From the NCBI GenBank assembly GCA_003990765.1, contig RBNJ01000309.1:1-33456 (forward strand): a stretch of 33,456 bases of DNA, in the 5' to 3' direction. Below the pieces are notes generated by a model. That model saw only the letters and a list, made by a program, of their open reading frames with translations. It searched no databases and had not been told where the DNA came from. Origin of the DNA: Jimgerdemannia flammicorona. Taxonomy: Eukaryota. Positions 7,559 to 30,122 of this stretch are shown here, in pieces (positions within the stretch are counted from its first letter, which is position 1; the number at the start of each line of letters is the position of its first letter). The position numbers and the translations under genes were made by a program.

Positions 7559-7567
7559 TGGTAGCAG
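7559..7567 (+). other. Primer-binding site, likely tRNA-iMet
   Basis: TGGTAGCAG after a 3-nt spacer; complementary to the ...CUGCUACCA 3' end of eukaryotic initiator Met tRNA as I recall it. Confidence 0.7.
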
Positions 7568-9513
7568 CAGTTTACAATCCAATTCTGCTTCAAGATGCTA
7601 CCTCACTCCATTATATATCCTTCTGAGAATTCCTACAAGTTGGTATAAAGCCCAATCTCTGAACTGGAATTTTTTCTAAACCATCTGACAATCTGGAGAG
7701 AATTGAACCTGACATACAAGGACAATTTGACCTCTACACCTGCAACAAGTGGGACAAACTTTACTCAAAGAAAGAAGTACTCCAATTAAATCAGCAAATA
7801 GGTGAAACTCTATTCACCAAACTCCTTGCACTACACCCAGCAAGTCAAGATGAAGAAGGTCTTATTGAAGCCTTCTTTACTCTTCTCAACAAGAGTTTTG
7901 TCAGCTCCACAAACCCGAGTGACCTAGGATAACAAGCAGCAGTCTTTCTAGCCTTAGTTCCTCATGAAGCCCAAGCCTCTGTAGCCAAGTGGCTCAACTC
8001 TACCGACTTTCACTGTACCAGGACCAAGACTGCATTATACTACCAATTCCAGAACAGCAAGGCCTGCCATATTCTTAAAGAAGAAGCAAGAGAAACCCCT
8101 CATCAACTACCTGATCCTGAACCTGAAGCAGGCCCTGCTACAGCCCTACCTGAATCTGAAACCAATACTGAACCTGAACTTGACTTTGAATTAAGTCCAT
8201 CTGAAATCAGATATGCAACTAATTCTATCTACTTTAACGCCAAGCAAACCCTATTACAGGGGGACCAAACCGAAGAGGAGGAGGAGTATCTCACTGAATT
8301 TGATCCTGGATACACTACAGAAGGAGACGCAATCCCATCAGGACAGAATACACCTATACAACAACAAACAGCTATCTATCAAGCCCTTACTCCAGATCCA
8401 CAACTACTACTTCAGCAACTTACCCAGACCCAAAGAACCCCATCACACTCTGCACCAGTACCTCAAGTAGTACCAGTAACACCACTTCCAGCAGTCCAAC
8501 TACCTCTAGTGAACAATATGGCGAACCAACAGATTCTTGATCTCATAGCCCAAGTAGCTATAATGGCAGCAACCATTACTGCCTTAGCTGAACAGACCTG
8601 ACCTACAAAAAATCTGAGCCTACCTACCTTCAATGGTACTGTACAAGAAGTCCAAAGCTTCATTAGTGTAGTTGACACCAACTTCAAAGCCAATCAATGG
8701 ACCAATGAGTGAGTTGCTGACCGTGTTCTGACAAACAATCAAGACCACACTCTGGAACAACTCTTTGCTACTACTACAGCCTATGTCCGCTGAGTTGTTA
8801 CATTCTTCTGAGGACCTGCTGAAGAATGGTGGTGAACCCTTCCTGAAAAACCCCTCATATGGAATATCTGATCTGCAGTAGTTGTTCGGAATGCAGCAAA
8901 CAATACCCCAGGATATAGAGCCCATCCAGCAGCCCCTGGACTCAAATAACTCATGATTGCTCAATATAACAGTGAAACCATGATTGCCGAATCTCGAGTA
9001 AAACTCTGCAGCCTCAAATTTGATATACATGGTAAAGAAGAATTTGAAACCTTCTGTACAAAACTCGAGTCACTCCTAAACACTGTTGGCCTAGGATACA
9101 TTGCCAATGATGAAGCACAAAATGGTACAAGAGCAGACCACTTATTCGATGCCCTGCCTGAATGGCTTACCAGAAAAATCCAAGAACAAGACCACCCAGT
9201 TGGTTGTGACCACCAACAATGGTGCCTGGCAAGAATCAAGACTATGGTCAAGCAAATCCTAACAGCTGGACCAATTCTGCCCTGAAGACAATTCAATAAC
9301 AAGGAAATGACCTGGACCAAGAAAGAAGAACCCAAGCATGAAGCACCCCAAGCTCCCTCCACATCCACCTCTTGGACACCCAGAAATCATAAACCTATCC
9401 AGCAAAGTACCTTCAAGAAACTTACTGTAGGTGAAAGGAATGAACTTCGAAGAAGCAGAGCATGCTTCTATTGCCAAAAGATAGGACACATGGCCAGTGC
9501 CTGCCCTAACTGA
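7561..9513 (+). pseudogene. gag: Gag of B with long N-terminal extension, capsid-like core (from ATG 8518) and CCHC knuckle
   Basis: One continuous frame with internal stops: LPTFNGTVQEVQSFISVVDTNF, GPAEEWW; zinc knuckle CFYCQKIGHMASAC at 9463-9504. Confidence 0.85.
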
Positions 9514-9582
9514 AAACCCCGAACAGCAACAAGAGCAACCATTACCACTCTGCACCACCTCAACAACCTGACCACCAGAACA

Positions 9583-9990
9583 CTAGACTTTATCAAGTTA
9601 AGACAAACTGCTAAGGCCCCAACCAAAGGAAGTCAAAAAGCAGCTGGATATGACCTATATGCAGCCGAAGAAGCTATAGTTTCTAACTGAGAAGTCAAAC
9701 AGATCTACACAGGAATCAGCATCCAAATCCCTGAAGGACATATTGGAAGAATATGCTATTACAGCAGCCTAGCATTGAAAGAACTCTCAGTAGAAGGAGG
9801 AGTCATTGATGAGGATTACACAGGCAAAATTATTATTCTCATCTGAAACCATAGTTGGACACCATTTAAGATCCCCATAGGTTTCTGCATAGCCCAGATC
9901 CTATTTGAAAAAATCGAGTCAACCCTGACAGTCTAGGAAGTCTCTGAACTACTACCTACCATCTGAGGATCCAAAGGATTTGGCTCATCA
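9583..9990 (+). pseudogene. dut: dUTPase domain of B, between Gag and protease
   Basis: Manual translation shows the five trimeric dUTPase motifs: AAGYDL, GRICYYSSLA (degenerate), GGVIDEDYTG, IAQIL, *GSKGFGSS. In frame with gag and PR. Confidence 0.92.
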
Positions 9991-10212
9991 AACAAGGCCC
10001 CAGCCCAACCTACCATGAATAAAGAAGAACAATTCTATAAGAAAATCGAAGATGGATATGTACCAAGTGGCCGATGCCTCTATGGCATTGGAATGTACTC
10101 TTCCCGAATGATTGACAATTGCTTCTCTTGTGTCAATGAACTGGCTCAAAGAAGAACCAACAGAAGGAAAGCTCCTATAACTGAAATCACTACCATTGGA
10201 TCAGACAAACTG

Positions 10213-13200
10213 CTCATACTCAAGGCTTTTGTCAACCAAGCACCTGTCAAGATTATGATAGACAGTGGTGCCTCAGGCAACTTCATCAATGAAGAAACAG
10301 CCAACAGACTCAAGGTCTTCACCTCTCTAGTACAACAAACTCAAGCAGTTGCCACAGCTGATAGAATCACACATATCATTAGTAAGGAAGTCCACAACCT
10401 GCCCTTCCGAATTGGTGACTACTGAGTATATGTTACCCTCCAAATCATACCACTTCCTGACAATGAAATCATCCTTGGGACCCCATGGTTAAAATAAGAG
10501 AACCCAATGATCGATTGGGTAAACCATTCTCTGACCATCAAGAAAGGATGCCACAACTTCAAATCGCAAGGTGAGAAGGACCCACTCAGTTCCAGTGACT
10601 CTGGACCAAAGATCACCCACATCAACAAGTTACAACTCAAGAAATTGGCCAAGAAATGCCCTCTCTTTGTGATCTCCATCTACTCATCCAAAGGAGAACC
10701 CAAGAATTCTGAAGAAGACTTTTCCAAAGTTGACAGCTATATCAGACCACTACTCCAGAAATTCCAAGACATATTCCCAAAGAAGCTTCCAAAAGGCCTA
10801 CCTCCTAAACGAGCAGTAGACCATGCCATCAAGACCATCCCAGATGCCAAGCCAGCCTTTAAGTCAATCTACCACATATCTCCAAGAGAAATTGATGTAC
10901 TCAAGAAGGAAATCGATAAACTCCTAGAATAAGGATTCATCAGACCCAGTGTATCACCCTATGGTGCACCAGTCCTCTTTGTTGTAAAGAAAGGAGGGGA
11001 CCTGCGAATGTGTATTGATTACCGAGACCTCAATGAGCAGACCATCAAGAACTGTTGCTCACTCCCCAGAATCGATGAAATATTCGACAGGCTTACCAAC
11101 CCACAATTCATGAGCTCTTTTGACCTGCGAAATGGTTACTGGCAAATTGCCATGAAAGAAGAAGACATCTACAAGACAGCCTTCTGAACCTGCTATGGAC
11201 ACTTTGTATTCCTGGTTATGCCTTTTGGCTAAACTAATACTCCAGCAACCTTCCAGATACTGATGAATACCATCCTGCACCCATACCTGGACAAATTCAT
11301 TGTTGTCTACATTGATGACATCCTAGTCTTCAGCAAAACCCTGGAGGAATATCTCGAACACCTTGAACTAGTACTACTGAAACTCCGAGAAAACCGACTC
11401 TTTGCAAAACTCAGCAAATGTGAATTCCTCCTGAAGGAAATACAATTCCTTGGATACATTGTCACACTAAATAGAATCAAAGTGGACCCCAGCAAAATCT
11501 CTGCAATCAAGGATTGGCCCAGACACAAGAAGCTAAAAGACCTCCAGTCATTCCTGGGATTAGCAAACTATTACAGATGATTTGTTGCCAACTTTGCCAA
11601 AATCGCCACTGCCCTTACTCAAATGACCAAGCACAATAAGAAACAAGAACAACCCTGGACCATGAAACAAGAGAAAGACTTCAACAACCTTGTAAATTGG
11701 GGACCTGAACAAGATACAGCCTTTCGAGCACTGAAAGATGCCCTGATAACTACCCCAGTACTTCAAGCAGCAAATCCTGCCCTACTATATGAAGTTACCA
11801 CTGATGCTTCTGACCTAGCCCTTGGAGCCATGATGGACATCCTGTGGCCTATCACTCCCACAAGTTCAATGATGCTGAAATCAACTATGCAACTTATGAG
11901 AAGAAAATGTTAGCCATCATAGACACTCTGATCAAATGGCAACCATATCTAGAAGGAGCACACTTCACCGTATTGACTGACCACAAGTCATTAGTCAATA
12001 TCAAGACCCAGGCTACCCTTTCTCGAAAGCAAGCCAGATGGATGAAAGTCCTCACCAATTTTGACTACAAAATCCAGTACTGTCCTGGTAAGGAAAATAT
12101 TGTTCCTGATGCAATCTCCAGACCACCAATCGAAGAGGTTATCCAAACTCTCACCTTGGTTACAAACTCCATCATGGAACAAATTATCACAGCATGTGCC
12201 AATGATAAGGAAGCTCAAGCACTCCATGAAATCCTGAACAGTGATAATGCTGATAAATATACCCAGTATAATCAATACCAACTCAAGGACAATGCTATCT
12301 ACTACAAAGACAGACTGTATGTCCAAAACAACTGAGACCTCTGAAGGACTATCATATTCGAATGTCATGATGCCCCTACAGCCAGACATTTAGGATTTGG
12401 TAAATGTTATGAAGTTATCTCCTGAAACTTCTATTGGCCCCGCATAGCAGATCAGCTCAAAACCTACATCACTTCCTGTGATGCCTGCCAATGAAACAAG
12501 TCCTCAACACTAGCAAAACCTGGCTTACTATACTCTATCCCAGTACCATCTGCAAATTGGGAACAAATCTCTATGGACTTCATTGTATAACTACCCCAAA
12601 CCAAGAATGGGAAAGATGCAATTATTGTCTTTGTGGACTATCTCAGCAAACAAGTCCACTTCATGTCTACTGCCACTACTGCAACAGCACCAGACATAGC
12701 CACACTCTTATTTGATAATATCTTCTGCTACCATGGTTTTCCTAAGATCATTGTTAGTGACCGAGACCTGAAATTCACCAGCCATTTTTGGAAAGCCCCC
12801 CATGCACACCTTGGAACAAAACTTGCACTATCCATGGCCTTTCACCCAGAAACCGATGGCCAAACTGAAAGAATGAACCGAACACTAGAACAAATGCTAA
12901 GGAACTATGTTTCCTACAGACAAGATGATTGACATGAATACCTCACTGCAGTCGAGTTTGCCTATAACAATAGCAAGCAAGCCTATCTTGGAATGACCCC
13001 ATTCTTTGCCAATACTGGACAAAACCCAAACACCCCTTTGACACTCATCTGAACTACTGAAGAACCCTCCACAGTTGAAGCCATTGAAGAATTCCTGCTC
13101 TGAATGCGTAATCTAAGCCAGATCGCAATCGAGAACTTATCACAAGCTCCAGAACAACAGTCACAGTATGTTAACCAACACCACCGAGAAGAAACCTTTG

Positions 13201-13640
13201 ATATTGGAGAAAAAGTTCTTCTTGACATCCGAGGATACTGAGTTGACAGCCTCAAGCACAGACCATCTACAAAGCTGAACAGTAAGTTCATTGGACCATT
13301 TGAAGTCCTTGCACAAGTCTCTCTGACCTCCTACAAATTGGCACTACCAGACACTATTAAGATTCACCCAGTCTTCAATGTCCAATGTCTCAAGTGATAT
13401 AATAAGAATGATAATGAGCTATTTCCAAACTGGACTATCAAACTGCCTGCACCTGTCATTATTAATGACCAAGAAGAGTACGAAGTTGAACAAATCCTCA
13501 ACAAATGTGGCCACATGAACCACCCTGAGTATCTTGTCAAATGGAAAGGTTACCCAATCCATGATGCAACATAGGAACCCAAGACCAACCTCCAGAATGC
13601 TACTAACTTAGTTCAGGAATATAATTCCTTGAACAAATGA
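10213..13640 (+). pseudogene. pol: Pol of B: protease, RT, RNase H, integrase, chromodomain
   Basis: IDSGAS (D at 10261), YIDD (11308), TDASDLALGA, TDHKSL, integrase HH..CC, SDRD, FHPETDGQTERMNRTLEQ, GPF. Many stops and a frameshifting deletion at ~11830. Confidence 0.97.
13476..13640 (+). other. Integrase C-terminal chromodomain of B
   Basis: EYEVEQILNKCGHMNHPEYLVKWKGYPIHDAT*EPKTNLQNA, with aromatic-cage residues Y/W/Y. Confidence 0.93.
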
Positions 13641-13772
13641 GATCTGAATATCCCAACACCTATCAGTACATAGCATATAATACCCTCCTGAACATTATAA
13701 CTATCACGAACCTAATCAAGAACTCAGCAAGACAGAACAAAATTAGAAGGCCCGACGAGGATGTCGAAAGCT

Positions 13773-13785
13773 AAGAAGGAGAGAG
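13773..13785 (+). other. Polypurine tract of B
   Basis: AAGAAGGAGAGAG, 1 nt before the 3' LTR. Confidence 0.9.
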
Positions 13786-13786
13786 T

Positions 13787-15849
13787 TGTAAGCACACAAC
13801 CTCCAAGCCACTGGAACCCCACATCACCCCCTAAACAAGCCACCAAAATCACATGCAACCTCAAAACAAATCTGGAAATCACCTGCCTGATCACGAAGCT
13901 GAGTCAAACCGAAGTAACAGCATACAAAGCTAAGTCAATACAAAGTCATAGAATACAAGATTTATACAAATGGAATCTTACCAATCAGGACCAAATGCAT
14001 ATATACCGAGTACTGAGATGCATCGAAACAGAGAACCAAAACAAACAACAACCACAACTTCCAAACACACAAACATGACCACCGAGTTCTACAACTGCAT
14101 CCATGCTGACATTTGGAATGCCATTGTCAACCGAGCTATACCCCCTCTGCCCCTCATAAATATCCATAGCCTAGCACCCCTCTACTTCGTGGAAGCCTGA
14201 TGGAATGCTCTGATCATGCTTAGCGAGGCCAACCAAATTAGACAAATTTCAAGCTACTACCAGATTGGCTGCCTCCTGGAAGATATGGTCAAACACCACC
14301 ATGATACAGATATTACCAAAATATCTCAACACCTGAAGCTCATTGCCCGCAAACATCAAGAACTCTTCTACGAGTATAGTACCATTATTCCCCGCCTCTG
14401 AGTTACCACCAGTAAAATGGTTGCTACCCTGTCCTATGGCCAAATCGACAATATGATACAAGAACTCAACCATAAGTACCTTGAGTATGTCGAAACCACA
14501 GACAGAACCTTCCCACACCCCAATGATCACATCCTGCAAATGCCCCAAGTTGGATATGCCATGAAGGACATCTATGATATAATCCACTTTGATGAAGACA
14601 AAGCAGAAGACAATGATCCCTCTGACACCGACATGACCTCTAGCCAAGGATCCCTACCAACTCTGATTACACTGCCAACTCTGTTAATGAACTTACAACA
14701 GTTCATAACCACCTACGAGACTTATTGGGACAATGACCACTGGCATAAATACCAACCCGCGTTCACTCCTGATTACTTCAACTACAATGAAGAGACCAGA
14801 GAACACAACCTGTACCTTCAGACAACCCTCGAGATCGAATCAACCACTCTACCACCCAAGTATGAGTAACATAAACCACAGCTGCCAGCTTACTACAATC
14901 CTGCAACTCATAGTACTGTAACCTATAGAAGGTATGCAGACAGTGAATCTGATGAAAGTGAAGACAATGCACTCCTCCTGCACCCACCAACACCTTATCC
15001 AGTATATGAGACAGACAATGTGATCCTATAGAATGGAGATGAAGTCCCAATGTATCATTACCTTAGTGAACAAGGAGAAGTAATCCATGAACCACTCTTC
15101 CTAGATGACTACTTCATCAGAAGATGATGCAATTGATGGTAATGTCATCGAGAACTACCCAGACAGCACCTAAACCTATAAATAGCATAGCAGTTATAGT
15201 ATAGTTAGATTAGCCTTGTACGATGTGACTGTGAACTGACTCAGCAGTCAGACGATCTCTTGACATGTCAGATCACACTTGTACTACGTGACTGCATTCC
15301 GACTCAGTAAAGCACTTAGTACCATATCCATATTCAGTATAGCCCAGATAGCCCCTCACTAGTATAAATACCTGCTCCCCCAGATCTCAGAATCTCAGAC
15401 TCAAACACACAAGAATATTCCTGAATACTTCCCCACAATATCCCTTTACACAACTACTTCTAGTATAGCAATATCATAAATAGCAAATAATCCTATTCAA
15501 TAACCCACAAACCACCCTTAAGTAAATCTACTCCCTGTTAGGTCCTACTCCTAACTCCCTCACAAAATTTCCTAATTGGGTATTGTCTGCAGTGATATGC
15601 CAATTCAACTAAGCTGGTCTTAGTTTCTTGAACTTCCTGAAATATGGAAATCCTGAACATCCAGAACTAGTCCGAAAAAAGGACTTTGGTTGAGACATCA
15701 ACCTGATCTTGAAATCAATAAGCATAGAGGACATACTCCATATGAAATTGATCTCGACCATAAGAAAACAGTCTTTCAGAATATCCAGAACTTCAAGAAA
15801 ACCCTTCTAGAACTATGTAATGGTTACCCTAAAAAGCAACCCTCTTACA
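13787..15849 (+). repeat. 3' LTR of element B
   Basis: Direct repeat of 5493-7555, followed by TSD GTCTC. Confidence 0.96.
14075..15173 (+). pseudogene. LTR(U3)-encoded accessory ORF, B 3' LTR copy
   Basis: In-frame pieces 13970-14200, 14216-14401 and 14417-14869. Confidence 0.75.
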
Positions 15850-17002
15850 GTCTCTTTCTCTACTACCTTACTGATCACAAGGTTTGGTAGGCAACCTTCT
15901 AAGTTCCCTTTCCTCTATTATTACCCCCTCTACCTCAGGTTGGTTTGCTGTGCCTGCAGGGGCATAGTTGAAGGGAGGCAATAGTGATGAGTTGTACTTT
16001 TATCAGTGTCCAATTGGTGTCTTCTTTACTTTTTCACAGTTTCTGGTGCCTTTAGCTACATCTGGAGTATATCTGTTTTGATTTCCTTTTGCCATTGCCA
16101 ACAAGATACTGTCTCAGTATGTCTTGGGCTCTGTAGAGAGTCAGCCAACCTTAGGCATTGAGTGCTCAGTATAGATTACCTGTAAGTCCTCAGTGTCTGT
16201 GGTAGAGCTCTCTGGCTTTGGCAAGCTTCCCGGTGGGCATGGTTCTGACATAGGTGACTGTTTTTTGGATGATATTGGAATGGGAGGCGAGATGGCCATC
16301 ACAGATAGGAGGAAGGGTAATTATGGTAAACCAGTAGGGTGCTAGACTGGAGGCAGCTGTTGGAGCTGGGGTAGGTGCTCTTCAGTGGGGCCTTTTGATT
16401 GGTGTAGTGTGGTTAGGTAGTAGGTGCCACTCTCAGCTTCTTTAGGTGGTCAGGCAGATTAGGCCCCAGTCATTAGAGGTCGGGGGGCCTGAGGCTACCC
16501 ATTTCAGATATCTTGGCTACACTTAACTAGAACCAGGAGCTGATATAGCAATGTGATCAAGGCCTATAGGCTTGAGTAGTGGAGTATTGGGGATCTCCTA
16601 CTGCCTCATGTGTAAGTCCTTTACTTACTTTAACTGAGAGAACCAGACCCTGCCCACCATGTTGTACTTTGAGGAGGGTTTTTTTTTATCTGTCATTCTC
16701 TTTGGGGTGGCAGAGGCTATTCTATTTGGCTTGGGTATATGTTGGGATTCAGGCATATGCTTTCAGTCATTGGCATATGGTTGGGTTTCCCCTGGTGGTA
16801 GGGAGAGTATGGTGTGCAGAATGAGGTATGGACCATTCTGGCCCTACTGTATCTGACATAGTCGAGCTGCTAGACAATAGCTAGTCTAGGTTAATGGGGA
16901 GACAGTGCTTGGTAGATAGTGAGGGAGGGTTTTGGTCTATATAGTCTAGGTTCTCTTTCAATAAAAATCCATGGGACATGAGTCTGTTAAAAAAAAAAAA
17001 AA
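15850..17002 (+). mobile_element. Retroposon X, copy X2 (full length; first ~13 nt at 5480-5492)
   Basis: AATAAA at 16960, A-tail 16989-17002, 15-bp TSD TATAGTTCTGATATA at 5465-5479 and 17003-17017. Confidence 0.85.
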
Positions 17003-17327
17003 TATAGTTCTGATATAGGTGACGGCTTTTTAGGTATTGTTGGGATAGGAGGGGAGATTGCCATTACAGATAAGAGGAAGGGTAATAATGTTAAATTACT
17101 AAAGTACTAGGCTTGGGGTAGTCATCAGAGCAGGGGTGAGTACTGCTTTGGTAGAGTCTTTTGATTGGTATGGAGCAGTTAGGTGATAGATATCGCTCTC
17201 AGCTTCTTTTGGTGATTTAGCAAGTTAGGTCTCAGTCATTGTGGGGGTTCAGAGAGCTTGAGGCTACTTATTTCAGATATCTTAGCTATACTTAACTAGA
17301 ATTAGAAGCTGATATAGCAATATATAA
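17003..17327 (+). repeat. Retroposon X, copy X1, middle fragment
   Basis: Homologous to ~16238-16552; interrupted by element C. Confidence 0.85.
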
Positions 17328-17468
17328 TGTGATATCTACAATTGACTCTGTCCAAATTTGGAGTACCCTGTGACCACAAGATCAGACGACATTATGGTGC
17401 GATAACTGGTGACCAGCCCACTCCGTCAAGTGATTTTACCAAAAGAAGACAAGATGACCTAAGCCAAA

Positions 17469-18524
17469 ATGAAGACCATGTTATTTAAGGAACCATACTC
17501 CGCCTCAGGGATCAGCACTAAAGAACCAAGTACCCACCACACAATGCCTCCCATTCGTCGATCCAACCAGACCTCCCACTGCTCTACCCCTTTGCCTGGC
17601 CCAAAGACCCTGATCTTTGAAGCTATCAAGAAGGCCATCTGGTGCCCAGACACTTCCGAACACTTGAACTTCTACACTGAGGACCTTGGACACTTCATCA
17701 ACTACCGGTATATAATGACCCAACAGCTCAAAGATACTACTGAACGAATGACCCTCTGGCATGACTATGAAATCGGACACCGCCTTTGCAATGAGACTCA
17801 AGAAGGTGACCAGGAAGACCTCATTGCCAAAATGTTAACCACCAGCCGGCTAATCAAGAGAGCCCTTGATGTCCACCAAATCTTTCACCATATTCCCTGG
17901 GCTATAGCACACTTGCAAGGAGTAACAGCTGGTAGCCTCTCCCACCTATCAACTGAAGATGCTGACTGGATAGAATCTGAAGTAGCCAACTCTATTGGCA
18001 GCAACCGCGTTGCCGTAGGAAGCCAACAAACTGAACCTACTCAGCCAGGTTTTCACACTACCCCACTCTGAGACAACCATCAAGGTCACCTAATGAGTCT
18101 TATGGAGATATTTGAAGGACTGCCCATTACTATAGAAGCACCCATTGGAGCTAACCCAACCACCCACCATCCAGTCAGCCACAATTCACATCTCATCATT
18201 TGGGAACCGAATCAAGAAGAAGCCCAAGAAGTCTCTGTCTTTGAAGAGGAAGCCCAAGAACTCCAAGACCCTGCCCCTGAAGAAACCCCCTCTGACACTG
18301 AAACTGACAAGTTATCAGAAGAAGAAGAGGAGCAACAGAGAGTCTACCAGTCCTCTGTCCGCGATCAAGCTGTTCAAGGGTTGGAGAATGTTGTTGAAGA
18401 TGACTGGCCACTTTTCTACCCCCTCACCTCTTGGCTGGCACTCCCCCCCTTTGAGGAGAAATATGATGAAGAAGAAATCGCAACCCAGCAAGATTTGCCC
18501 GCTGCAGGGTACTATTCCCTCTAG
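17469..18524 (+). pseudogene. LTR(U3)-encoded accessory ORF of C, 5' copy (351 codons; alternative start 17544)
   Basis: ORFs 17469-18071 and 18093-18524 are in frame, separated by one TGA that is CGA in the 3' LTR. Confidence 0.85.
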
Positions 18525-18560
18525 AGTACCACCCATCAGCTGTGAGAATCAAGCTTTTAG

Positions 18561-18815
18561 TCAGCAAGTCCGTTTTCAGCATTGCCACCCTCCACAACCA
18601 TTTCTGGCAACAATCATCATATCATGTCAGCTCATCTGTTTCCAGTGTTGCTACCCAGTATGAGCATTTTCAGCATTTTTATCAGCAAGTCCATTTTCAG
18701 CGTTGCCACCCTCCACAACCGTTTCTGGCAACAATCATTGTATCATGTCAGCTCATCCGAATCCAGCATTGCTACCCTGCACAACTGTATCCAGCATTGC
18801 TATCCCCTACAACCT
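18561..18815 (+). repeat. U3 tandem repeat (121-bp period) with reiterated CAGCRTTGCYAYCC motif
   Basis: Units start at 18561 and 18682; short motif about 5 times; mirrored at ~28899-29153. Confidence 0.85.
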
Positions 18816-18923
18816 AATCCATAGTAAACAATAGCCTGCACCTTGCATCGTGCAAGCCAATAGTATAGCAAATGTTTGCCACAATATAGTATATCTTAGC
18901 CGCACCCATAGCTAGCAAACTGG

Positions 18924-18931
18924 TATAAATA
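18924..18931 (+). promoter_or_regulatory. TATA box, LTR C
   Basis: TATAAATA conserved at 29262; AATAAA at 18950. Confidence 0.6.
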
Positions 18932-19003
18932 ACCCATATTCTTAGAGTAAATAAACCTCAGTCAGTTGAAGTTCGAAGTAAAAAGAGTTACAGAGAAACC
19001 CCT

Positions 19004-19400
19004 CACTGCCTTCAAGAGACTGGATAATTCTGAGAATAAGATAACTAGAGCAACAATCGCTCGAGGTTTGAGATAAAGAATTTTCTCTTGCCACGGAAAG
19101 AAAACGTTACCCGACCGCTGCCCGAATTTCAAGTTTTGCTGCCACAAAAAGGATTCAAGACCATGGACCACCCGCAAGTCAACTGGTTTTGAGAAAAGAA
19201 ACCACTGCCTCCAAGAGACTGGAAAATTCTGAGAACAAGATAACTACCTAGAGCAACAGATTGCTCAGAAGTTTGAGTTAAGGAATTTCTCTTGCCACAG
19301 AAAGAAAATGTTACCCGACTGCCACCATTCGAGACCCAGAAACCCAAGGATTCAAGACTACAACTGCCGCGCATTTGACCGCCATTCGAGATTCGAGACC
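19004..19400 (+). repeat. ~199-bp imperfect tandem duplication in R/U5 of LTR C
   Basis: CACTGCCTyCAAGAGACTGGA...TTCTCTTGCCACrGAAAGAAAAyGTTACCCGAC starts at 19004 and 19203; present in both LTRs. Confidence 0.85.
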
Positions 19401-19787
19401 TGGAAACCTCAGGATACCCAGCCAAAGGATACTAGACCGTCTGCCAGAACCCTTTCAAGTTAACAAGTCAAGACGGACAAGTGAGCCATTGACTTCCATT
19501 TTCTTTACCTACTGCACCATGAACTGCTTAAAGTCAAGACCGTCACTGAGTTTGCTGCCAAGTTAATTGCCACCAGGAATGCCCTTATCCACTAAACAAT
19601 TGAGCCACCATCATTGAACAATTGAAGTCCCGCTATTATCAATTACTGTACGAAATGAACGTACTGATCACATGACCATCGACCCGCGAACATCACCAAA
19701 GCCTTCAGTTATATATCGTGCGCTTCTCCAAGTGGCACATTGAGCCATGCTAGAAGCAATAAGAGATACCTAACCAACGCCACATTT

Positions 19788-19805
19788 TGGGGGCTCAACT
19801 GGGAA
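19788..19805 (+). other. Primer-binding site, tRNA-Pro type
   Basis: TGGGGGCTCAACTGGGAA resembles the tRNA-Pro PBS of MLV (TGGGGGCTCGTCCGGGAT). Confidence 0.8.
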
Positions 19806-19853
19806 AGTTTTCAAAAGACTTGACCATTTGGCTCAAGAACTCAGCTATCTATA

Positions 19854-21838
19854 GTGGAGAACTTAGCAGGACTAAGTCAGCAACCAAACCAGGGGCAGCA
19901 ACAGCCCTCCTCAGCAGAAAAGAAAGCCCACACCCTTGTCAGAACAGTAGCCAGGACCCTATTCAACACCAGTAGCCAGAAAACTGAATCAGAAGAAAGA
20001 AGTGATCCAGATTATGGTTTGACTTCAAGAGAAAGGAGACGACTCAGAGGACAACCAGAACTGCCCCTTCAGATCCAAGACTTAGGCCAAGAAGAAGAAG
20101 AGGATATCCCCGAGAAGTATCAGACCCTTATCCATAGGAAGAACTCAGACAGAAGTGACTACATAACTACTGTTGTTACTCGAGTCACTCCACTAGACTG
20201 GGTGTACTTTGAAACATCAGAAGGAGAAGAGGACTATCATCCATATCAACCAGAGCAAGACAACAATTGGGGATCAGACCACCAAAGAGACGAATTCAAC
20301 CTATACTATTATCCAGACAGCGACACAAACCCACAACAAGATGAACAAGACCTCACTACTTCACAACAGCAAGGGGCAGATGAACTCACTATCAGTTATA
20401 TCAGTCCACTCCCACCATCAGTTGCTTGAACTTCAGTACCCTGGTCACTTACACCTCGCCACTATCACTAGTCAATCAGAAGATCTCCACCACTACCCAG
20501 GACTTCAACCCCAGCATTAATTAGAAGAGCCAGATTACCCTCACCCTCACCAAGACACCGCCCTCTGCCAGCACCACTAGATCATCAAGTACTAGTACCA
20601 CCACCTTCCCCACCACCCCAAGGATCCACTAGATCCCCCACCCCTGAACAATACTCAGATAGTGAAGACGAGCCAGACATGAGCTACCTTCAGAAGTTCC
20701 ATGGTGCAGACAATGAAGATATCGAGGAATTCTTTGGAGAAATTGAAGTTCAAGCAGCCACCAAACAATGGGATGCTGCAAGAAAACTCAGAATCGTGGA
20801 GTCACTCTTGAGAGGACCAGCCCTACAGAGGTATAATCAAGTCAAGCAAGCTGGAGGAGAAATCCATGCAGAGGAACTGAATGACGGCCTTCAACCTGAT
20901 AGAAACCATGTAGCAAGATACATGATTTACAAAGCCTGGCTCTGTGCCCAGTTCAATGGATTCGAGCACCACGAGAAGCACAGGAGGCTTTGATCTACAT
21001 GAGCCAAGCTGCCATTGAAACTCCCAAGAGTTTCTACCATCGGATTCAAGCTCAAATGATCAAGGCGAACCTTCAACCAGCAGTCCAACTGGCTCTAGCT
21101 TCAACTACCTTCCTCAATGGCTTATACTCCGAACTCCGAAGGCAAGTTATCAGGATGGGATATTGAAACATTGAACAGCAAGTTGCTGGAGCACAAGGAT
21201 GTTGGGAAGCAGATTATAGACCAGTACAACAAGTACAAGGCTATCCTGAGCCAATCTGAGCTGAAACCCCAAGGACTCGAGGAACAACCATGGAGCAAGA
21301 GAATGCCTTCCTCAGAGCCCAGATAGCCAACTATGAGAACAGACCAGCACCCACAAATCCGACTCCATTCAGGCAACCACAGCAGCAGCCACCATCAAGA
21401 GTTCAAGAAGACCCCATGACAATGCTCACCAAGCAAATGAAGGACCTGGCCATTGCGGTTGCCCAGCTGAACAACCAAGGTAGAAGACAACAAGACTACC
21501 ATTGTGATAACAGACCAGACTACTGGCAACAAGACAACAGAGGTCCTGCCCCCACACTACCAGCTGTAACTACAGTCTCATCAGCGACTGGTTCCTATGG
21601 TCCCACCTGCTTCAACTGCAGAAATCAAGGCCACATCCAGAGGAATTGTCCAAGAAACCAATCCACCACCCAGTCTAATGACAGAAATGTCAACCTCTTT
21701 CAGGTAGATAAAGAGACTCAGGAAATGGAAGAAGAAGCAGCCTGGCTCCATGGTCAAGAAGATGACATCTACCCATACTTTGAGGCTTTTCCATCCAAGG
21801 TGATATGGGAAGCTGTCTCCGCAGAGACCAGAGGATGA
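19854..21838 (+). pseudogene. gag: Gag of C with acidic/Pro-rich N-terminal extension and CCHC knuckle
   Basis: LQKFHGADNEDIEEFFGEIEVQAATKQW..LLRGPALQRY from 20679; frameshift ~21000; CFNCRNQGHIQRNC at 21608-21649. Confidence 0.87.
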
Positions 21839-22339
21839 GGAAGACCATGAAGGAACCCCCCACCTCAACTGCCAGTAATAGTATCCACAGGCAAGCATCC
21901 GTGACATGGCCATTCTTCTTCAGATACTCCAAAAGAATAGGAAAAGCAAGTTAGAAGAGATACTCCTGAACCTGAAGCCAGACCATCTAAGATAACCCCC
22001 AGCTCTACCCTGCCAGACCTTGAAGAAGACGAGCATATGAGCATAGAATCTTCAGCTGACGAAATACCCAACAGGAATGAGAGACTATACTCCAAGGGAC
22101 TAAGACACCGAAGAAGCAGCAAGCCCCATGCAGCAGCCTCACTTTGGGAACATATCCACCTACAGAATGCTGGTCTTACAGTTGAGCAAGTCCTCAAGAA
22201 TGCACCAGAGGTCAGGCAAAAATTCCTGAAAGAAGCCAAGGAAGATACCAAGAGACTTCCAGTCCAAGGACCACACACTCAAGAATCTAGTACTATCTAC
22301 ACAGTCCATGAGAGCCAGCATCATGAACATCAATCTACA

Positions 22340-22700
22340 AGACTCGCCAATGGAAAAGTGCATGGTGAAAGTGCCAGAATTCTCATCGATACTGGAGCAG
22401 CAGTATGCATCATCACCCAAAGGATGTTGGAGCGAATTGGATGTAGAATAGATGAAGAAACCAAAGCAAGAGTTATCATGGCTGACGGATCAGCTTCCAC
22501 ACCTCTTGGACTTGTCAGAGACATCCCTATTCAAGTCGGAAAGGCCTGCCTCAATGTACCCAAAGCTGTCGTGACTCCCGCAACCTCCTATGACCTAATC
22601 CTGGAAACTGACTGGTTAAGCCGAGTTGGAGCTAATGTAGATATCAAGAAACCACTCCTGGTCTTCTCCATTCATGGACAGAAGTACAAGGTACCCATAG
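22340..22700 (+). pseudogene. Aspartic protease of C
   Basis: ILIDTGAAVCII (D at 22388), MADGS, YDLILETDWL. Confidence 0.93.
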
Positions 22701-23809
22701 ACTCGAAAGAATCATCTAAAAAGACAAATCAAGCCTCAGAAACAGAATGGCAAGGAAATGGCAACACCCCCACTACTACTGAGGATGAAAGTGAGGCCAA
22801 TTTCCTACAAGAACTAGGAAGTGATTTTGATGCCCCAAGGGACTAAGAAAGCGAACAAGAAGACTCTTTCATTGGAGTTATTGGTGTCAAAGGTCTGGAA
22901 GAAAGCACCGATAGAGCTATTAATGCAAGAGCAGCACTTGAGTTTGTAGGACCTTCTGCTCAACCACCACCACCACTGGTAGAAAATCGGATCATGCGAG
23001 CCTTTCGTCGAGGCATATGTGAACATTTTATCAGCTTCTACTCACCAAGAGATGATTGAAGCAATTGCCGAATCCTGGATCTCAAGAAGGTTCCAATGCC
23101 AGAAATTGATGACAAGGACGAATTGAAGCAAGCACCATCCTATAGCTGAATATAACCTCCAACCCCAAAGACCTTCAAAAAGACCTATAAGGAAGGACAG
23201 AAGATCCTTGCCCACCAAACATTTGAGTCTCTTACCATCGAAGGAGAAAGCAACAGCTCTTACACTATCACCCAGGCCCTCCAGATCACACAGCCCACCT
23301 ATGACAAGTATCGGAAGAGATTCCCTACCAGTAGGGAGGTCAAACAGCGAAATGGAGACTTTGTCAAGAAGGGATATTGTGATTGTGGAAAAACCTTTAC
23401 CTGCTACTGGTGTGAATATTGAGATGTTTACCTCAGCGAAGATGTCTACAAGAGGCGAGTCAAGAGAAAGGATCCCACCCTGCAAGAACCTCGAATTCGC
23501 TGGGCCTGTCAGAAGTACAAAGAAATCAACCATGAAGGAGATTGCCAGTTCAAGAGTAAGACCTCTATCTGGGACCTACTATTGGAAGTTCTTGCCATCA
23601 TTCGCTGGTACTGCCACCCTCATCAAGGAAAAGAAGGTATCAATCTTGCCTTTATCCTTATGGAAGCTCTGGACCCTCTAGGAAAGACTGGATTCAATTA
23701 CACAAGAAACTCAAAGACAGGAGCTCACTGGTCTTTCTTCAAACTGGAGCGCATAGACTTCTCACCTATAATGGCAACAGCTGAAGTGCCATTTCCCAAA
23801 GCTCAACCA

Positions 23810-24220
23810 ATTATCCAGGTCAAGCTGCTTTCACCCTGGGCACAGCCACCTCTTGCACAAACAGAAGGATCAGTTGGTTATGACCTCTGCCTCTCCTACT
23901 AAGCAAGAATCCGACCCAGAAGTACCAGGACTTTTGACCTACAGATTGCACTTGCTATACCATCTGGGAATTATGGACAATTGGCCTCAATATCCTCATT
24001 GACAACCAAAGGAGTCACAGTAGAAGGAGGAGTCATCGATCAGGACTACCGAGGTCCCTTGAAGGCCATTATCCACAATTCTAGTAGAACCAGCTGATTC
24101 TTCAGCCCTATGGAAGCCATCTGCCAAATCCTGTTTATCAAGACATCACAGCCAACCATCCAAGAGGTAGACCAACTAGAAGATACCACCAGAGGACAAG
24201 GAGGCTTTGGAAGTACCAAT
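23810..24220 (+). pseudogene. dut: dUTPase domain of C, between protease and RT
   Basis: GSVGYDL, GQLASISSL, GGVIDQDYRG, ICQIL, RGQGGFGST by manual translation in the PR frame. Confidence 0.92.
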
Positions 24221-24689
24221 AGAAATCTGTGAAAACTACCTATCGAGGTTCATTTAGCAACAGTTGCTCAATTCCAACAAATGAGACCCCACAACTGCCA
24301 CCCAATCCAAGCAAGAGAAGACATCCTCCTGCAGCCCTACCAGCAAAAAGGCCTAGATGTGCACCTACCAGTAGAAGCAAACAACTTGATATTTGCACCA
24401 TCACTGGAGCTTCAAAAGGAATATCACATCCTCCTGGCTGAAGAATGAATTCATGACCAGATGTCGCCGATCCACATCCCTATCAGAAACTCGAGCTTTG
24501 AAGTAATAACTATCTCCAAGGGAACAACACTGGGATATTTTGAACCACTGATAGACACCTATAAGGAAGAAGTCTTCGAATTCTTGGGAAATGGTAAGTC
24601 CTCTCCGGTGAGACTGACAGTACCAGGGAGGAAGACTCAGCAAATTCAGCAATCAAAGCCATCGACATCGAGACAACTCTAACCAAGGA

Positions 24690-27340
24690 CCAGCAACAAC
24701 AAATACAGGAGTTGATAGAGGAGTACAAAGATATATTTACCACCACATATGATAACTTCCCACCATATCAATATGGAGAACACCCTATATATAATGGAGA
24801 TGCGAGACCAATCCGACAACGACTCTATCGAACACCACATCATCTGATTGAATTCAAACAACAACACATAGATGAAATGCTATGAAATGGAGTCATTAGA
24901 CCATCATCAAGCCCCTGGACTTTACCAGCAATCATACATAGTACCAAAGAAAGGAGGATGGAGATTGGTCGTGAATTTCAGAAAACTCAACAAAGTCACT
25001 ACAGAGATGCCTACCCACTGCCAAGAATTGATGACCTCATCAATGCCCTCAGAAAAGCCAAATACATGACCACTACTGACCAGTTCCAAGGATTCCAAGT
25101 AATACCCATTACCAAGGAAGATATCTGCAAGACGGCCTTCATCACCAGACGAGGACAGTACGAATACCTACGAATGTCCTTTGGACTCTGCAATGCACCC
25201 GCCTCATTCCAACGAATGATGAACTATGTCTACCGGGACCTCATTGGAAGAAATGTACTGGTGTACATAGATGATGTAATCATCTACTCTGAGATATTCA
25301 AGCAGCATTTGCAAGACCTCCACAAAGTATTCAATACCATTTGAAATTCAGGACTCAGACTCAATGCCAAGAAGTGTTTCTTTGGAAAACATCAAGTCGA
25401 ATATCTGGGATATGTCGTCTGAGCTTAAGGAACACATGCCAACCCCCGCAAGGTGGAGAAAGTCAAGAACTACCCAACCCCGACCTCAGCAAAGGAGACC
25501 CTATCTTTCCTTATGCTAGCATCCTATTATTGATGATTCATCCCAAGGTTTTCAGATAAGGCAGCATCTCTCCGAGATATCTCCAAGAAGGACCAACCAC
25601 TCTACTGAAAGAAGAACAACAAAAGTCATTCGACTTACTCAAGAAGGCCCTTACTGAAGCCCCTGTCCTGGTGCAACCAGACTTTGGCAAACCATTCATC
25701 CTGGCAACTGATACCTCAGCCTTAGGACTTGGATCAATTCTGTCTCAGCAAGATGACCAGAAGAGGGAGCATGTTATTGAATATGCTAGCAAGGCCAAAA
25801 ATGAAACACAAGTGAACTATGGAGCTACTAAGTTAGAATGCCTAGCAGTATTTTGGGCTGTGGACCACTTCTGACACTATCTCTTGGGAAAGAGATTTGC
25901 TCTCATCACTGACCATCAAGCTCTACAATGGTTGTTCAACAAGCTGGAGCCCTCAGAAATCTTCGCTAGATGGATTATGTCTCTGCAAGAATATCAGTTC
26001 ACTATTGTCTACAAGAAAGGTGCTAAGAATTCCAATGTCGATACCCTGTCAAGAATCCTACGAAACCAATAAGAAGGGAAGGAGCCCCCACAAGAGAAGG
26101 CTGCTTCCCGCTCACCCAAATGAACCAAGAATTGCACCTCACCCTCACCTGGAGTCTGTACCATAGAAGCTTCAAGAAAGGAATCCAACCAGCTCACAAG
26201 TTGTTTATCAAAAGGAATTTCAAGAAATTCCAAGAAGGCAATGGCGAACTTTGGAGAGTAGAAGGAGAGCAGTACACCTGAGTTCCAAGAGAAGAAGAAA
26301 TATTGAAGATCCTGATAACAAATCATGACCAAAATGCATACCGAGGAATTGGCACCACAATCGCAAGAATCAAGAAGCAATACTGGTGGCCCAAGATGAG
26401 AAAACAAATTTCAATGCACATTCAACAATGTGATACCTGCCAAAGATACTGACAAAAGCCTACCGACAGAGCACCAATATTACTGATCGCAGCACCAGCT
26501 GGATCCTTCCAAAGACTGGGAATAGACATTATTGGACCTCTACCAGTAACCAGCCGAGGAAGATGCTACATCCTCACTATCGAAGACTACCTGACAAAAT
26601 GACCTGAAGCCTTTGCCATTGAGACTGCCGATGCCCAGACAATTATTGGGATCCTGTATGATGAAATTTTCAGCCATCATGGTGTGCCCAAGGAAATCAT
26701 TACAGACCAAGGCCGAGAATTCGTCAACCAAGCCATGAAGACCTTTGTGAGCAACTTCAAGATCAAGCTACGACCAATAATGGCCTACCACCCACAGGCG
26801 AATGGACTTACTGAACAAATGAACCAGACCATCAAGCGAGGTCTCAGTAGAACCAGAGATCAACTAAACTGAGATATCTATCTACTGGCAATTCTGTTCA
26901 GCATCCGTACCTCTAAGGCAACTGCTACCCAACAGACCCCCTTCTATTTGGTATATGGCCGAGAAGCACATGATCCTACTGAGCCAGTCCAGCTAGATCT
27001 GTCGAAATGAGTCACAGAAGAGATTACCTGGTTACACAATGTACACCAGCAGACACGAGGATTTATTGCCAAGGCACAAGAATGACAAAAGGGGCACTAT
27101 GACCACAAAGCCAACCTCGAACCCCTGCTCATTAGACAAGAGGTTCTGGTATACCGTACCATCATAGAAGGAAACTGGAGTGCCAAGCTTGAACCAAAAT
27201 GGGAAGGTCCCTATCTCATACACCAAGTATTCTCGAACCACACTTATCAACTCAAGACCTTGGATGGAGTTATACTGAAGACTAGGATACACTACAACCG
27301 CATAAGACTCTACTACTTAAGAGAAGCAAAATGCATTTGA
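24690..27340 (+). pseudogene. pol: Pol of C: RT, RNase H, integrase
   Basis: VPKKGGWRLVVNFRKLN, YPLPRIDD, YIDD (25264), TDTSALGLGSILSQ, TDHQAL, CDTC, ITDQGREF, YHPQANGLTE, KLEPKWEGPY. Stops and frameshifts; no chromodomain. Confidence 0.96.
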
Positions 27341-27655
27341 ACAATCCTGTTCACTCTGTCTGTATCATCTCTGTTGGAGATACAATGGATGTTTCACTCG
27401 GAACTCAAGAAAGCCAACAACGTTGGAACCAGACTCAAGCCCATCCATGTGACAGACATTGTTACTAAGAAATTGCCTCGGATTACAAGAAATACTATTT
27501 CTGATAGGTTCGAATCCCCAGCTGCGACTATGGGTGCCCTCGCCCTAGACAAGGATGGCCAGTCCTCACAAATGTACCAACATTCTGCTCATCCCTGGAG
27601 TTAAGACCACCTAACTCTGTGTAACCTTCACCGCCGAGGATGGCTCTAAATTTGC

Positions 27656-27665
27656 AAGGGGCAGA
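27656..27665 (+). other. Polypurine tract of C
   Basis: AAGGGGCAGA directly before the 3' LTR. Confidence 0.65.
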
Positions 27666-30122
27666 TGTGACGTCTACAATTGACCCTGTCCAAATTCGGA
27701 GTACCCTGTGACCACAAGATCAGACAACATTATGGTGTGATAACTGGTGACCAGCCCAATCTGTCAAGTGATTTTACCAAAAGAAGACAAGATGACCTAA
27801 GCCAAAATGAAGACCACATTATTTAAGGAACCATACTCCGCCTCAGGGATCAGTACCAAAGAACCAAGTACCCACCACACAATGCCTCTCATTCGCCGAT
27901 CCAACCAGACCTCCCGCTGCTCTACCCCTTTGCCTGGCCCAAAGACCCTGATCTTTGAAGCTATCAAGAAGGCCATCTGGTGCCCAGACACTTCCGAACA
28001 CTTGAACTTCTACACTGAGGACCTTGGACACTTCATCAACTACTGGTATATAATGACCCAATAGCTCAAAGACACTACTGAATGAATGACCCTCTGGCAT
28101 GACTATGAAATCGGACACTGCCTTCATAATGAGACTCAAGAAGGTGAGCAGGAAGACCTCATTGCCGAAATGTTAACCACCAGCCAGCTAATCAAGAGAG
28201 CCCTCCATGTCTACCAAATCTTCTGCCATATTCCCTGGGCTATAGCATACTTGCAAGGAGTAACAGCTGGTAGCCTCTCCAGCCTGTCAACTGAAGATGC
28301 TGGCTGGATAGAATCCGAAGTAGCCAACTCTATTGGCAGCAACCGCGTTGCCGTAGGAAGCCAACAAACCGAACCTACTCAGCCAGGTTTTCACACCACT
28401 CCACTCCGAGACAACCATCAAGGTCACCTAATGAGTCTTATGGAGATATTTGAAGGACCACCCATTACCATAGAAGTACCCATTGGAGCTACCCCAACCA
28501 CCCACCATCCTGTCAGCTACAATTCACATCTCATCATTTGGGAACTGAATCAAGAAGAAGCCCAAGAAGTCCCTGTCTTTGAAGAGGAAGCCCAAGAACT
28601 CCAAGACCCTGCCCCTGAAGAAACCCCCTCTGATACTGAAACTGACAAGTCATTAGAAGAAGGAGAGGAGCAACAGAGAGTCTACCAGTCCTCTGTCTGC
28701 ATTCAAGCTGTTCAAGGGTTGGAGAATGTTGTTGAAGATGACTGGCTACTTTTCTACCCCCTCACCTCTTGGCCAGTACTCCCCCCCTTTGAGGAGAAAT
28801 ATGATGAAGAAGAAATTGCAACCCAGCAAGATTTGCCCACTGCAGGGTACTATTCCCTCTAGAGTACCAACTATCAGCTGTGAGAATCAAGCTTTTAGTC
28901 AGCAAGTCCATTTTCAGCGTTGCCACCCTCCACAACCGTTTCTAGCAACAATCATCGTATCATATCAGCTCATCCATTTCCAGCGTTGCTACTCAGTATG
29001 ACTGTTTTCAGCATTTTTGTCAGCAAGTCCGTTTTCAGCATTGCCACCCTTCACAACTGTTTCTGGCAACAATCATCATATCATTTCAGCTCATCCGAAT
29101 CCAGCATTGCTATCCTGCACAACCATATCTAGCATTGCTATCTCCTACAACCTAATCCATAGTAAACAATAGTCTGCACCTCGCATCATGCAAGCCAATA
29201 GTATAGCAAATGTTCACCACAACATAGTATACCTTAGCCGCACTCATAGCTAGCAAACTTGTATAAATAACCCATATTCTTAGAGTGAATAAACCTCAGT
29301 CAGTTAAAGTTTGAAGTAAAAAGAGTTACAGAGAAACCCCTTACTGCCTTCAAGAGACCGGATAATTCTAAGAACAAGATAACTAGAGCAACGATCGCTC
29401 GAGGTTTGAGTTAAAGAATTTTCTCTTGCCATGGAAAGAAAACATTACCCGACTGCCGCCCGAATTTCAAGTTTTGCCACCATGAAAAGGATTCAAGACT
29501 ACGGACTGCCCACAAGTCAACTGGTTTTGAGAAAAGAAACCACTGCCTCCAAGAGACTGGAAAATTCTGAGAACAAGATAACAACCTAGAGCAACAGATC
29601 GCTCAGAAGTTTGAGTTAACGAATTTCTCTTGCCACGGAAAGAAAACGTTACCTGACCGCTGCCATTCGAGCCCCGGAAACCCAAGGATTCAAGACCATG
29701 ACCGCTGCACATTCGACCACCATTCGAGATTTGAGACCCGGAAACCCAAAGATACCCAGCCAAAGGATACTAGACCGTCTGCCAGAACCCTTTCAAGTTA
29801 ATAAGTCAAGACAGACAAGCGAGCCATCGACCTCTGTTTTCTTTACCTATTGTGCCATGAACTGCTTAAAGTCAAGACCATTGCCGAGTTTGCTGCCAAG
29901 TTAATTGCCACCAGGAACGCCCTTATCCACTAAACAATTGAGCCACCATCGTTGAACAATCGAAGTCCTGCTATTATCAATTACCACATGAATTGAACGT
30001 ACTGATCACGTGACCATCGACCCACAAACATCACCAAAGCCTTCAGTTATACATCACGTGCTTCTCCAAGTGGCACATTGAGCCATGCTAGAAGCAACAA
30101 GAGATACATAACCAATGCCACA
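27666..30122 (+). repeat. 3' LTR of element C
   Basis: Direct repeat of 17328-19784. Confidence 0.96.
27807..28862 (+). pseudogene. LTR(U3)-encoded accessory ORF of C, 3' copy
   Basis: ORFs 27807-28064 and 28086-28862 are in frame; its TAG and TGA stops are CAG and CGA in the 5' LTR. Confidence 0.85.

Follow-up and report, generated by a model that had tools for sequence, protein, structure and literature searches.

The long terminal repeats (LTRs) of retrotransposons are usually treated as non-coding control regions. A 33,456-nucleotide stretch of Jimgerdemannia flammicorona DNA (contig RBNJ01000309.1 of assembly GCA_003990765.1, positions 1 to 33,456; the window) raises the question of whether the LTRs of some Ty3/Gypsy elements also contain a gene. 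The window contains nested Ty3/Gypsy LTR retrotransposons, which all lie on the forward strand; the LTRs of two of them, B and C (2.2–2.5 kb), carry a long sense open reading frame (ORF), and a third locus, D, is a decayed relative of the ORF in C. An initial annotation had proposed that B, C and D share an accessory gene upstream of the LTR promoter, possibly encoding a regulator. Our analysis makes it very likely that there is a real, selected, LTR-resident gene family here, with a less certain place in it for the B ORF.

Long sense ORFs in the LTRs of elements B and C

The LTRs of element C are 2458 bp long with TG..CA ends, and the 5′ and 3′ copies are 92.7% identical (self-blastn). The three LTR copies of B are 88.6–91.2% identical to one another. 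The LTRs and the ORFs embedded in them are as follows.

17328–19784, forward strand: C 5′ LTR (self-blastn to 27665–30122; termini read)
17469–18524, forward strand: ORF within the C 5′ LTR, 351 codons long and interrupted by a single stop (codon 201)
27666–30122, forward strand: C 3′ LTR (self-blastn; termini read)
27807–28862, forward strand: ORF within the C 3′ LTR, 351 codons long and interrupted by two stops (codons 86 and 93)
2467–4678, forward strand: B LTR copy 1; starts TGTAAGC, ends ..ACA; probably a solo LTR
2724–3821, forward strand: ORF within B LTR copy 1; 365 codons, 4 stops
5493–7738, forward strand: B LTR copy 2; 5′ LTR of the full element
5781–6879, forward strand: ORF within B LTR copy 2; 5 stops up to codon 349, close to which the frame shifts
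13787–15849, forward strand: B LTR copy 3, the 3′ LTR, with its 3′ end truncated at 15849
14075–15173, forward strand: ORF within B LTR copy 3; 4 stops up to codon 349, close to which the frame shifts

All five B and C LTR copies in the window thus carry a sense frame of about 350 codons, interrupted by 1–5 stops where 15–18 are expected from base composition (Poisson P for the observed counts, 3.5e-6 to 8e-4). The two C frames have 1 and 2 stops against 15.4–15.6 expected, and the B frames 4–5 stops in 349–365 codons against 16.8–17.8; the other five frames contain 8–34 stops over B and C together, and 10–27 in C. Because the counts fall so far below the compositional expectation the frames are not fortuitous, and a chance ORF is ruled out (1–5 stops versus 15.4–17.8 expected). 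The long sense ORFs reported in the initial annotation for the LTRs of B and C are therefore confirmed, both by the LTR boundaries and by the stop counts. Since the ORF lies within the terminal repeat, each element has two copies of it, and there is a further copy on the likely solo LTR.

In C, the start codon that the family conserves is the ATG at 17544, which lies 216 nt inside the LTR, and the ATG of B copy 1 (2724) is 257 nt into its LTR. The single stop in the C 5′ copy is private to it: there is a sense codon at that position in the 3′ copy, in the related metagenome protein P0004, and in contigs of two metagenome runs (X1 and X2).

An orphan protein family with intact relatives

An exhaustive HMMER search of 1.84 billion representative proteins with a C profile returned 8 proteins at E≤0.001, four of them C-type fragments and four distant relatives (P0014, P0015, P0017 and P0020; E 5.5e-22 to 5.3e-6). 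Word-based searches yielded few relatives: for C, 2 of 1125 candidates, and for B, 1 of 627. A family-profile search added a few further members (9 of 3787 candidates). What we call the C/D family (P0001, P0004, P0014, P0015, P0017, P0020, L001 and L002) is defined by significant similarity in the N-terminal domain, with the motifs W-x-[DE]-Y-E-I-G and H-Q-[IV]-F-x-H-x-P. The relatives are all metagenome proteins, annotated as 'hypothetical protein' at most and lacking NCBI or UniRef accessions. By these searches C/D is a small orphan protein family, many of whose members are intact.

The link between C and D is provided by P0017, an intact protein of 247 residues that is the intact counterpart of D.

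444–1229, forward strand: D, a P0017-type C/D member in decay; two frameshifts, nine or more stops

P0017 matches D in three pieces at 61–72% identity (tblastn E 1e-75) and also matches the C copies directly (tblastn E 3e-21), and a profile search gives E 1.6e-15; C and D are therefore homologous, in agreement with the alignment of their proteins in the initial annotation. The same annotation had described D as a long LTR ORF upstream of a TATA box. The family relationship stands on the tblastn evidence, but with two frameshifts and at least nine stops D is not a long ORF.

A scan of metagenomes with a D-type profile recovered two DNA sequences only, L001 and L002, which contain intact ORFs of 291–343 codons (L001, 376–1251; L002, 69–1040); the DNA of D is 64% identical to L002. 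A metagenome scan with the C profile gave 170 pattern matches, none of which was confirmed, and neither were any of those from scans of viral contigs (123 with the B profile and 87 with the C/D profile). In L001, a stretch of 48 nt matches the C internal region at its 3′ end (79%) and is positioned 366 nt before the ATG, compared with 346 nt in C. A 33-nt direct repeat in L001 (170–202 and 1481–1513; 82% identical) flanks its ORF. The location of the ORF on the sense strand of the LTR, upstream of the core motifs, is read directly in C (two LTRs) and B (three LTRs), whereas for D and L001 the LTR location is deduced from flanking homology, and L002 shows the downstream core alone.

Selection on the LTR ORF

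The initial annotation had proposed a comparison of substitution rates among subfamilies, and this gives a result that is not neutral. L001 and L002, which represent two intact subfamilies, are 43% identical in protein sequence, with a proportion of nonsynonymous differences (pN) of 0.399, below that of synonymous differences (pS) of 0.746, and with 126, 101 and 168 differences at the first, second and third codon positions respectively. Judged from these substitutions, the frame is clearly under purifying selection between subfamilies. We also compared the C LTR with contigs of four metagenome runs (X1–X4). Among the 12 indel rows listed of 40, those inside the ORF sum to multiples of three in each contig, and the nine that lie downstream of the ORF are all (9/9) not multiples of three.

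Several observations weigh against the interpretation of the frame as a working gene. The pS value is saturated, and the pN/pS ratio is qualitative only. The two C LTRs differ evenly by codon position (14/18/17), which is the expectation for neutral decay after insertion, and the 32 substitutions within the ORF among the 40 rows listed of 199 in the metagenome comparison are distributed 9/9/14, which is not significant. All of the window copies, the five in B and C as well as D, are broken, and database proteins are found only where the frame is open, such that intact relatives are over-represented. Blending the odds for the gene family itself with those for expression from its own promoter and for a regulatory function (see below), we regard the explanation as a whole, an accessory protein-coding gene inside the LTRs of this Ty3/Gypsy group, as reasonably likely.

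Relationship of the B ORF to the C/D family

Whether the B ORF belongs to the same family is a separate question. B and C are deeply separate lineages, as indicated by reverse transcriptases (RT) that are only ~31% identical over 266 residues. B is a chromovirus, with a chromodomain in its internal region (Pfam scan), and C is a non-chromovirus element. The ORF in B copy 1 has an intact relative of its own (P0006; 63% identity over 247 aa).

The initial annotation had aligned the B protein with those of C and D, and this is not established: BLASTP gives E ~1, hhalign gives a probability of 0.15% with shallow profiles, and against a deeper C/D profile hhalign gives E 0.0099–0.011 (P ~0.01) and a probability of ~4%. 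The deeper alignment is colinear over 105–123 columns and takes in all three of the sequence blocks that had been put forward as shared. Its score of 26.2 is reached by none of 123 column shuffles and by 1 of 123 block shuffles, and the reversed alignment scores 15.8; when a family hidden Markov model is run on the three B copies, 53, 68 and 9 of 3000 sequence shuffles reach the real score. Because block shuffles often reach 24.7, most of the score is carried by a single short motif, Y-x-I-G-x-x-L.

These results can be read in two ways. The one that we favor is that the B ORF is probably a very distant homologue of the C/D family, as suggested by the colinearity over 123 columns and all three blocks, by the low frequency with which shuffles match the real score, and by the placement that the two have in common (ATG 216–257 nt from the LTR start), as well as their size, acidic tail and A/C-rich leader. 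Both also contain GTATAAATACCCC and AGTGAATAAACCT, and since even RT is only ~31% identical, similarity in a gene that evolves faster is likely to be too low to detect. The other reading, which we consider a serious possibility at somewhat less than even chances, is that two Gypsy lineages independently gained different genes at the same place in the LTR. This is consistent with the poor BLASTP and hhalign values and the dominance of one short motif, with blastn, which finds nothing in C, D, L001 or L002 that matches the B LTR, and with an AlphaFold2 (AF2) model of B whose predicted local distance difference test (pLDDT) score of 30.9 makes it unusable for structure comparison. The proposition of a gene common to a chromovirus and a non-chromovirus lineage thus stands in part: the C/D family occurs in a non-chromovirus element and the B ORF has the same placement, size and build, with a homology to C/D that is only suggestive.

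Position of the ORF within the LTR and its proposed expression

The LTR ORFs end 180–400 nt upstream of a conserved TATA box, and the following motifs are pertinent to where the ORF lies relative to the element's promoter.

18923–18958, forward strand: C core; TATA box GTATAAATA(A/C)CCC, then AGT(A/G)AATAAACCT 26 nt on
4010–4141, forward strand: B core; TATA box GTATAAATACCCC (4010–4022), then AGTGAATAAACCT (4129–4141)
1501–1533, forward strand: D core; TATAAATA, then AATAAA 27 nt on
356–363, forward strand: upstream TATA of D, TATAAAAG, 88 nt before the D ATG
2648–2653, forward strand: upstream TATATA of B, 76 nt before the ATG, present in all three copies
2148–2291, forward strand: gag-like stretch 3′ of D (tblastx to C gag, 29% over 48 aa, E 2e-4)

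Two 13-mers, one spanning the TATA box and its flanks and the other AGT(A/G)AATAAACCT, follow each other in this order in B, C and L002; in the window these have 5 and 4 matches, compared with 0.10 and 0.19 expected. The C pair occurs with the same spacing in L002 and D, such that TATAAATA and AATAAA are separated by 26–27 nt in C, D and L002 and by ~120 nt in B. The placement of the ORF upstream of a TATA box is thus confirmed, with the TATA and AATAAA core downstream of it in B, C, D and the metagenome relative L002. D is represented by a single copy in the window, and its LTR status is deduced from the downstream motifs and the gag-like stretch: because core motifs, a leader resembling that of C and then the gag-like stretch come after it, D appears to occupy a 5′ LTR position. 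A Pfam search of the sequence downstream of D gave no match.

On the usual reading of the downstream TATA box as the promoter of the genomic RNA, the ORF would lie in the unique 3′ region (U3) of the LTR. A second set of TATA elements precedes the ORF, with TATAAAAG at −88 from the ATG in D, −80 in L001 and −65 in L002, together with the TATATA of B and an A/C-rich leader before the ORF. These point to each LTR as a small transcription unit of its own, and we regard expression of the ORF from its own promoter as an evenly balanced proposition; the C-type LTR has no TATA element upstream of the ATG, and this counts against it. By this scheme each LTR would make a short mRNA of ~1.2–1.6 kb from the upstream TATA, which would encode the LTR-ORF protein alone and be polyadenylated at the signal of that LTR. 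With its start at the AATAAA or immediately beyond, the genomic RNA would ignore the signal at the 5′ end and use it only at the 3′ end.

The same motifs could be interpreted with the ORF in a very long terminally redundant (R) region rather than in U3. The upstream TATA would then be the genomic promoter and the ORF the first cistron, and the downstream TATAAATA and AATAAA would form a two-part fungal poly(A) signal, which consists of an efficiency element and a positioning element, such that most transcripts end early as the short LTR mRNA. The upstream TATA elements 65–88 nt before the ATG in D, L001 and L002 and the TATATA in B fit this, and the 26–27 nt spacing in C, D and L002 suits a poly(A) signal as well as a promoter. 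However, R would be ~1.2–1.5 kb, which to our knowledge is far longer than any known R, the B motifs are ~120 nt apart, C lacks an upstream TATA, and GTATAAATACCCC looks like a strong core promoter that is conserved with its flanks across lineages. We therefore consider a long R unlikely.

It is also improbable, and slightly more so, that the ORF lies in U3 without a promoter of its own and is expressed by splicing, from a subgenomic RNA in which the 5′ leader is linked to an acceptor site ahead of the 3′ LTR copy of the ORF, in the manner of sag in mouse mammary tumour virus (MMTV) or of lentiviral nef. The placement is that of sag, and the C-type LTR without its upstream TATA would suit such a route, but inspection by eye of five aligned upstream regions revealed no conserved acceptor (polypyrimidine tract plus AG) before the ATG, and the upstream TATA is conserved in three subfamilies.

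Predicted protein architecture and function

An AF2 model of the C protein, built from a 10-sequence family alignment, has a mean pLDDT of 58 and contains a helical domain at residues 41–180 (block pLDDT 58–89), with a tail that is of low confidence save for one long helix. The N-terminal halves of the proteins are near-neutral, and the C-terminal halves have a net charge of −17 to −31, with ~20% D+E and ~10% P, and carry hydrophobic-acidic motifs. There is no membrane segment (maximum 19-residue hydropathy ≤1.38). The predicted protein is thus a helical N-terminal domain of ~140 residues followed by a proline- and acid-rich tail; a helical domain and an acidic tail had been anticipated in the initial annotation.

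Searches for a functional match were negative, and this too weighs against a regulatory interpretation. Pfam gave no match at E≤1 for three proteins (B and C), nor at E≤5 for eight family members; a PDB sequence search with the family profile gave a single row at E 0.96; a Foldseek search of PDB and BFVD with the C model had no hit at E≤0.001; and ESM Atlas gave no usable match. A VIA-wide fold search with the C model gave Z≤4.1, with matches on the long C-terminal helix alone, which made it a weak probe of the N-terminal domain. These searches, none of which used the N-terminal domain separately, revealed no DNA-binding family or fold.

A regulatory function for the LTR-ORF protein is therefore doubtful, being a guess from its build and the position of its gene. 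If it has one, the protein would most likely act in trans on the element's own expression or silencing, with the folded domain recognizing a target and the acidic tail recruiting host machinery. The fullest form of this proposal, in which an old LTR gene common to chromovirus B and the non-chromovirus C/D elements makes each LTR, even a solo one, a self-contained gene with a promoter of its own and the poly(A) signal of the LTR, and encodes a trans activator or anti-silencer with a new helical fold and several hydrophobic-acidic motifs in its tail, is unlikely as a whole. It is very improbable that the ORF is instead a passenger of no present use to the element, whether a fragment captured from a host gene or the remains of a former coding sequence. 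All copies in the window are broken and no function is known, but subfamilies at 29–43% protein identity have preserved open frames of ~300 codons, their pN is clearly lower than pS, the exhaustive search of 1.84 billion representatives returned no more than eight hits, each context examined (that of C, of D, of L001 and of the metagenome contigs aligned to the C LTR) is one of retrotransposons, and the strand composition of the ORF agrees with the rest of the element.

Other features of the elements and the window

The remaining parts of elements B and C are as follows.

17324–17327 and 30123–30126: ATAA target-site duplication of C
18555–18777, forward strand: 121-bp tandem repeat, 1.8 copies, between the C ORF and the TATA box
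19785–27665, forward strand: C internal region, with primer-binding site (PBS), gag (CCHC), protease, dUTPase, RT, RNase H and integrase (Pfam scan)
27654–27665: polypurine tract of C, ahead of the 3′ LTR
7739–13786, forward strand: B internal region, with gag (CCHC), dUTPase, protease, RT, RNase H, integrase and chromodomain (Pfam scan)
ending at 13785: polypurine tract of B, ahead of LTR copy 3

The C internal region is decayed and spread over three frames, and no chromodomain was detected in it by the Pfam scan. A PBS-like TGG run directly follows the C 5′ LTR, and one metagenome contig passes from a C-type LTR end into the same PBS. Neither C nor B has an LTR 9-mer complementary to the 40 nt after the LTR, giving no indication of self-priming. 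Both elements encode a dUTPase, which points to a fungal host; it occupies different slots in the two, between gag and protease in B (~9600–10000) and between protease and RT in C (~23850–24220). Fungal Gypsy elements with a dUTPase at the Pol N-terminus or between protease and RT are described in the parts of PMC2864245 that we draw on, and the variable placement in B and C is as reported there for basidiomycete Gypsy elements.

The C LTR has an internal duplication (19004–19118 and 19203–19322) with no counterpart in its relatives, and at 18955–19203 contigs of runs X2, X3 and X4 omit ~237–239 bp, with other letters between. Compared with X1 contigs, the window C LTR (17327–19784) has T where the contig has C at 46 places and the reverse at 19, and A for G at 23 places and the reverse at 15; the two excesses suggest C-to-T decay of the window copy. 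Contigs of X1, X2 and X4 lose the match upstream of 17439 and continue into a common unrelated sequence in place of LTR positions 17328–17438, so the first ~110 nt of the LTR differ between close subfamilies.

B copy 1 lies 814 bp upstream of the full B element, and the spacer (4679–5492) is not B internal sequence; there is no polypurine tract ahead of B copy 2, and a Pfam search of the spacer gave nothing meaningful. Copy 1 is thus probably a solo LTR. A different repeat family surrounds C (15843–17321 and 30126–33456), with copies 72–81% identical in both orientations and with opposite GC skew, and C appears to have inserted into it. The stretches 1–2000 and 30001–31000 are AT-rich (GC 0.28–0.34, versus 0.41–0.48 in the elements). 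The D copy, full of stops, lies within the first of these, and its stop load possibly results from decay that is driven by methylation or resembles repeat-induced point mutation.

Comparison with known systems

The closest parallel is MMTV sag, a sense ORF of ~320 codons wholly inside the LTR and upstream of the promoter, whose accessory protein is encoded twice per provirus; Sag is a type II membrane protein. The LTR ORF described here is likewise wholly inside the repeat and present in two copies per element, but its host element is a Ty3/Gypsy retrotransposon rather than a retrovirus, and its protein has neither a Pfam superantigen match nor a membrane-spanning segment. Lentiviral nef and foamy-virus bel/bet are 3′ accessory genes that start in the internal region and run into the 3′ LTR. 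In contrast, the ORF here is wholly in the LTR, starting 141–257 nt inside it, and has no likeness to them in sequence (Pfam) or fold (Foldseek against BFVD).

Full-text literature searches yielded no LTR-embedded protein gene in a retrotransposon; such genes were found only for retroviruses, chiefly MMTV, and matches to 'LTR ORF' either concerned MMTV or meant pol ORFs. The paper on the crapaud element deals with LTR variability in the 5′ halves and not with ORFs, and Muszewska 2011 contained nothing relevant to LTR-embedded ORFs. Additional ORFs (aORFs) are known from other LTR retrotransposons, and the sections of PMC7264820 consulted list env-like ORFs in Athila and Bagy2, antisense ORFs in Grande, RIRE2 and Retand, and Boty in Botrytis; these are present in most copies of a family, are of unknown function and without cellular homologues, and lie internally, in most cases after pol and ahead of the 3′ LTR. 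As far as those sections describe them, the LTR ORF resembles aORFs in being a conserved extra ORF in most copies (5/5 of the B and C LTR copies in the window) with diverged intact relatives elsewhere, and differs in having both start and stop codons inside the LTR and not in the internal region.

A fungal Gypsy 'add. ORF' of unknown function is named in the legend to Figure 3 of Novikova et al. 2010 (PMC2864245), and on the basis of that legend may or may not be equivalent to the LTR ORF. The Gypsy element Cer1 of Caenorhabditis elegans encodes the accessory protein CERV, whose target is the RNA of Cer1 itself (PMC10309623, in part); CERV is similar in being encoded by a retrotransposon, but the portion consulted does not describe its gene as lying in the LTR. 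Accessory ORFs are known, then, from LTR retrotransposons, as are U3 genes from retroviruses, and the placement of such a gene in the LTR of a retrotransposon appears to be undescribed.

Significance

A conserved gene inside the LTRs would give each element two copies of it, and solo LTRs could still supply the protein in trans. This would change the reading of 'dead' LTRs in genome annotation, and because the family is unseen by domain libraries and known only from metagenomes, repeat masking probably hides it in annotated genomes. The LTR ORF offers a parallel, in a simpler host, to the U3 genes of retroviruses such as sag and nef, and its product is a candidate for an element-encoded regulator or counter-silencing factor. 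If the proposal of a shared, self-contained LTR gene acting in trans is correct, these elements would be 'complex' retrotransposons, comparable to the complex retroviruses.

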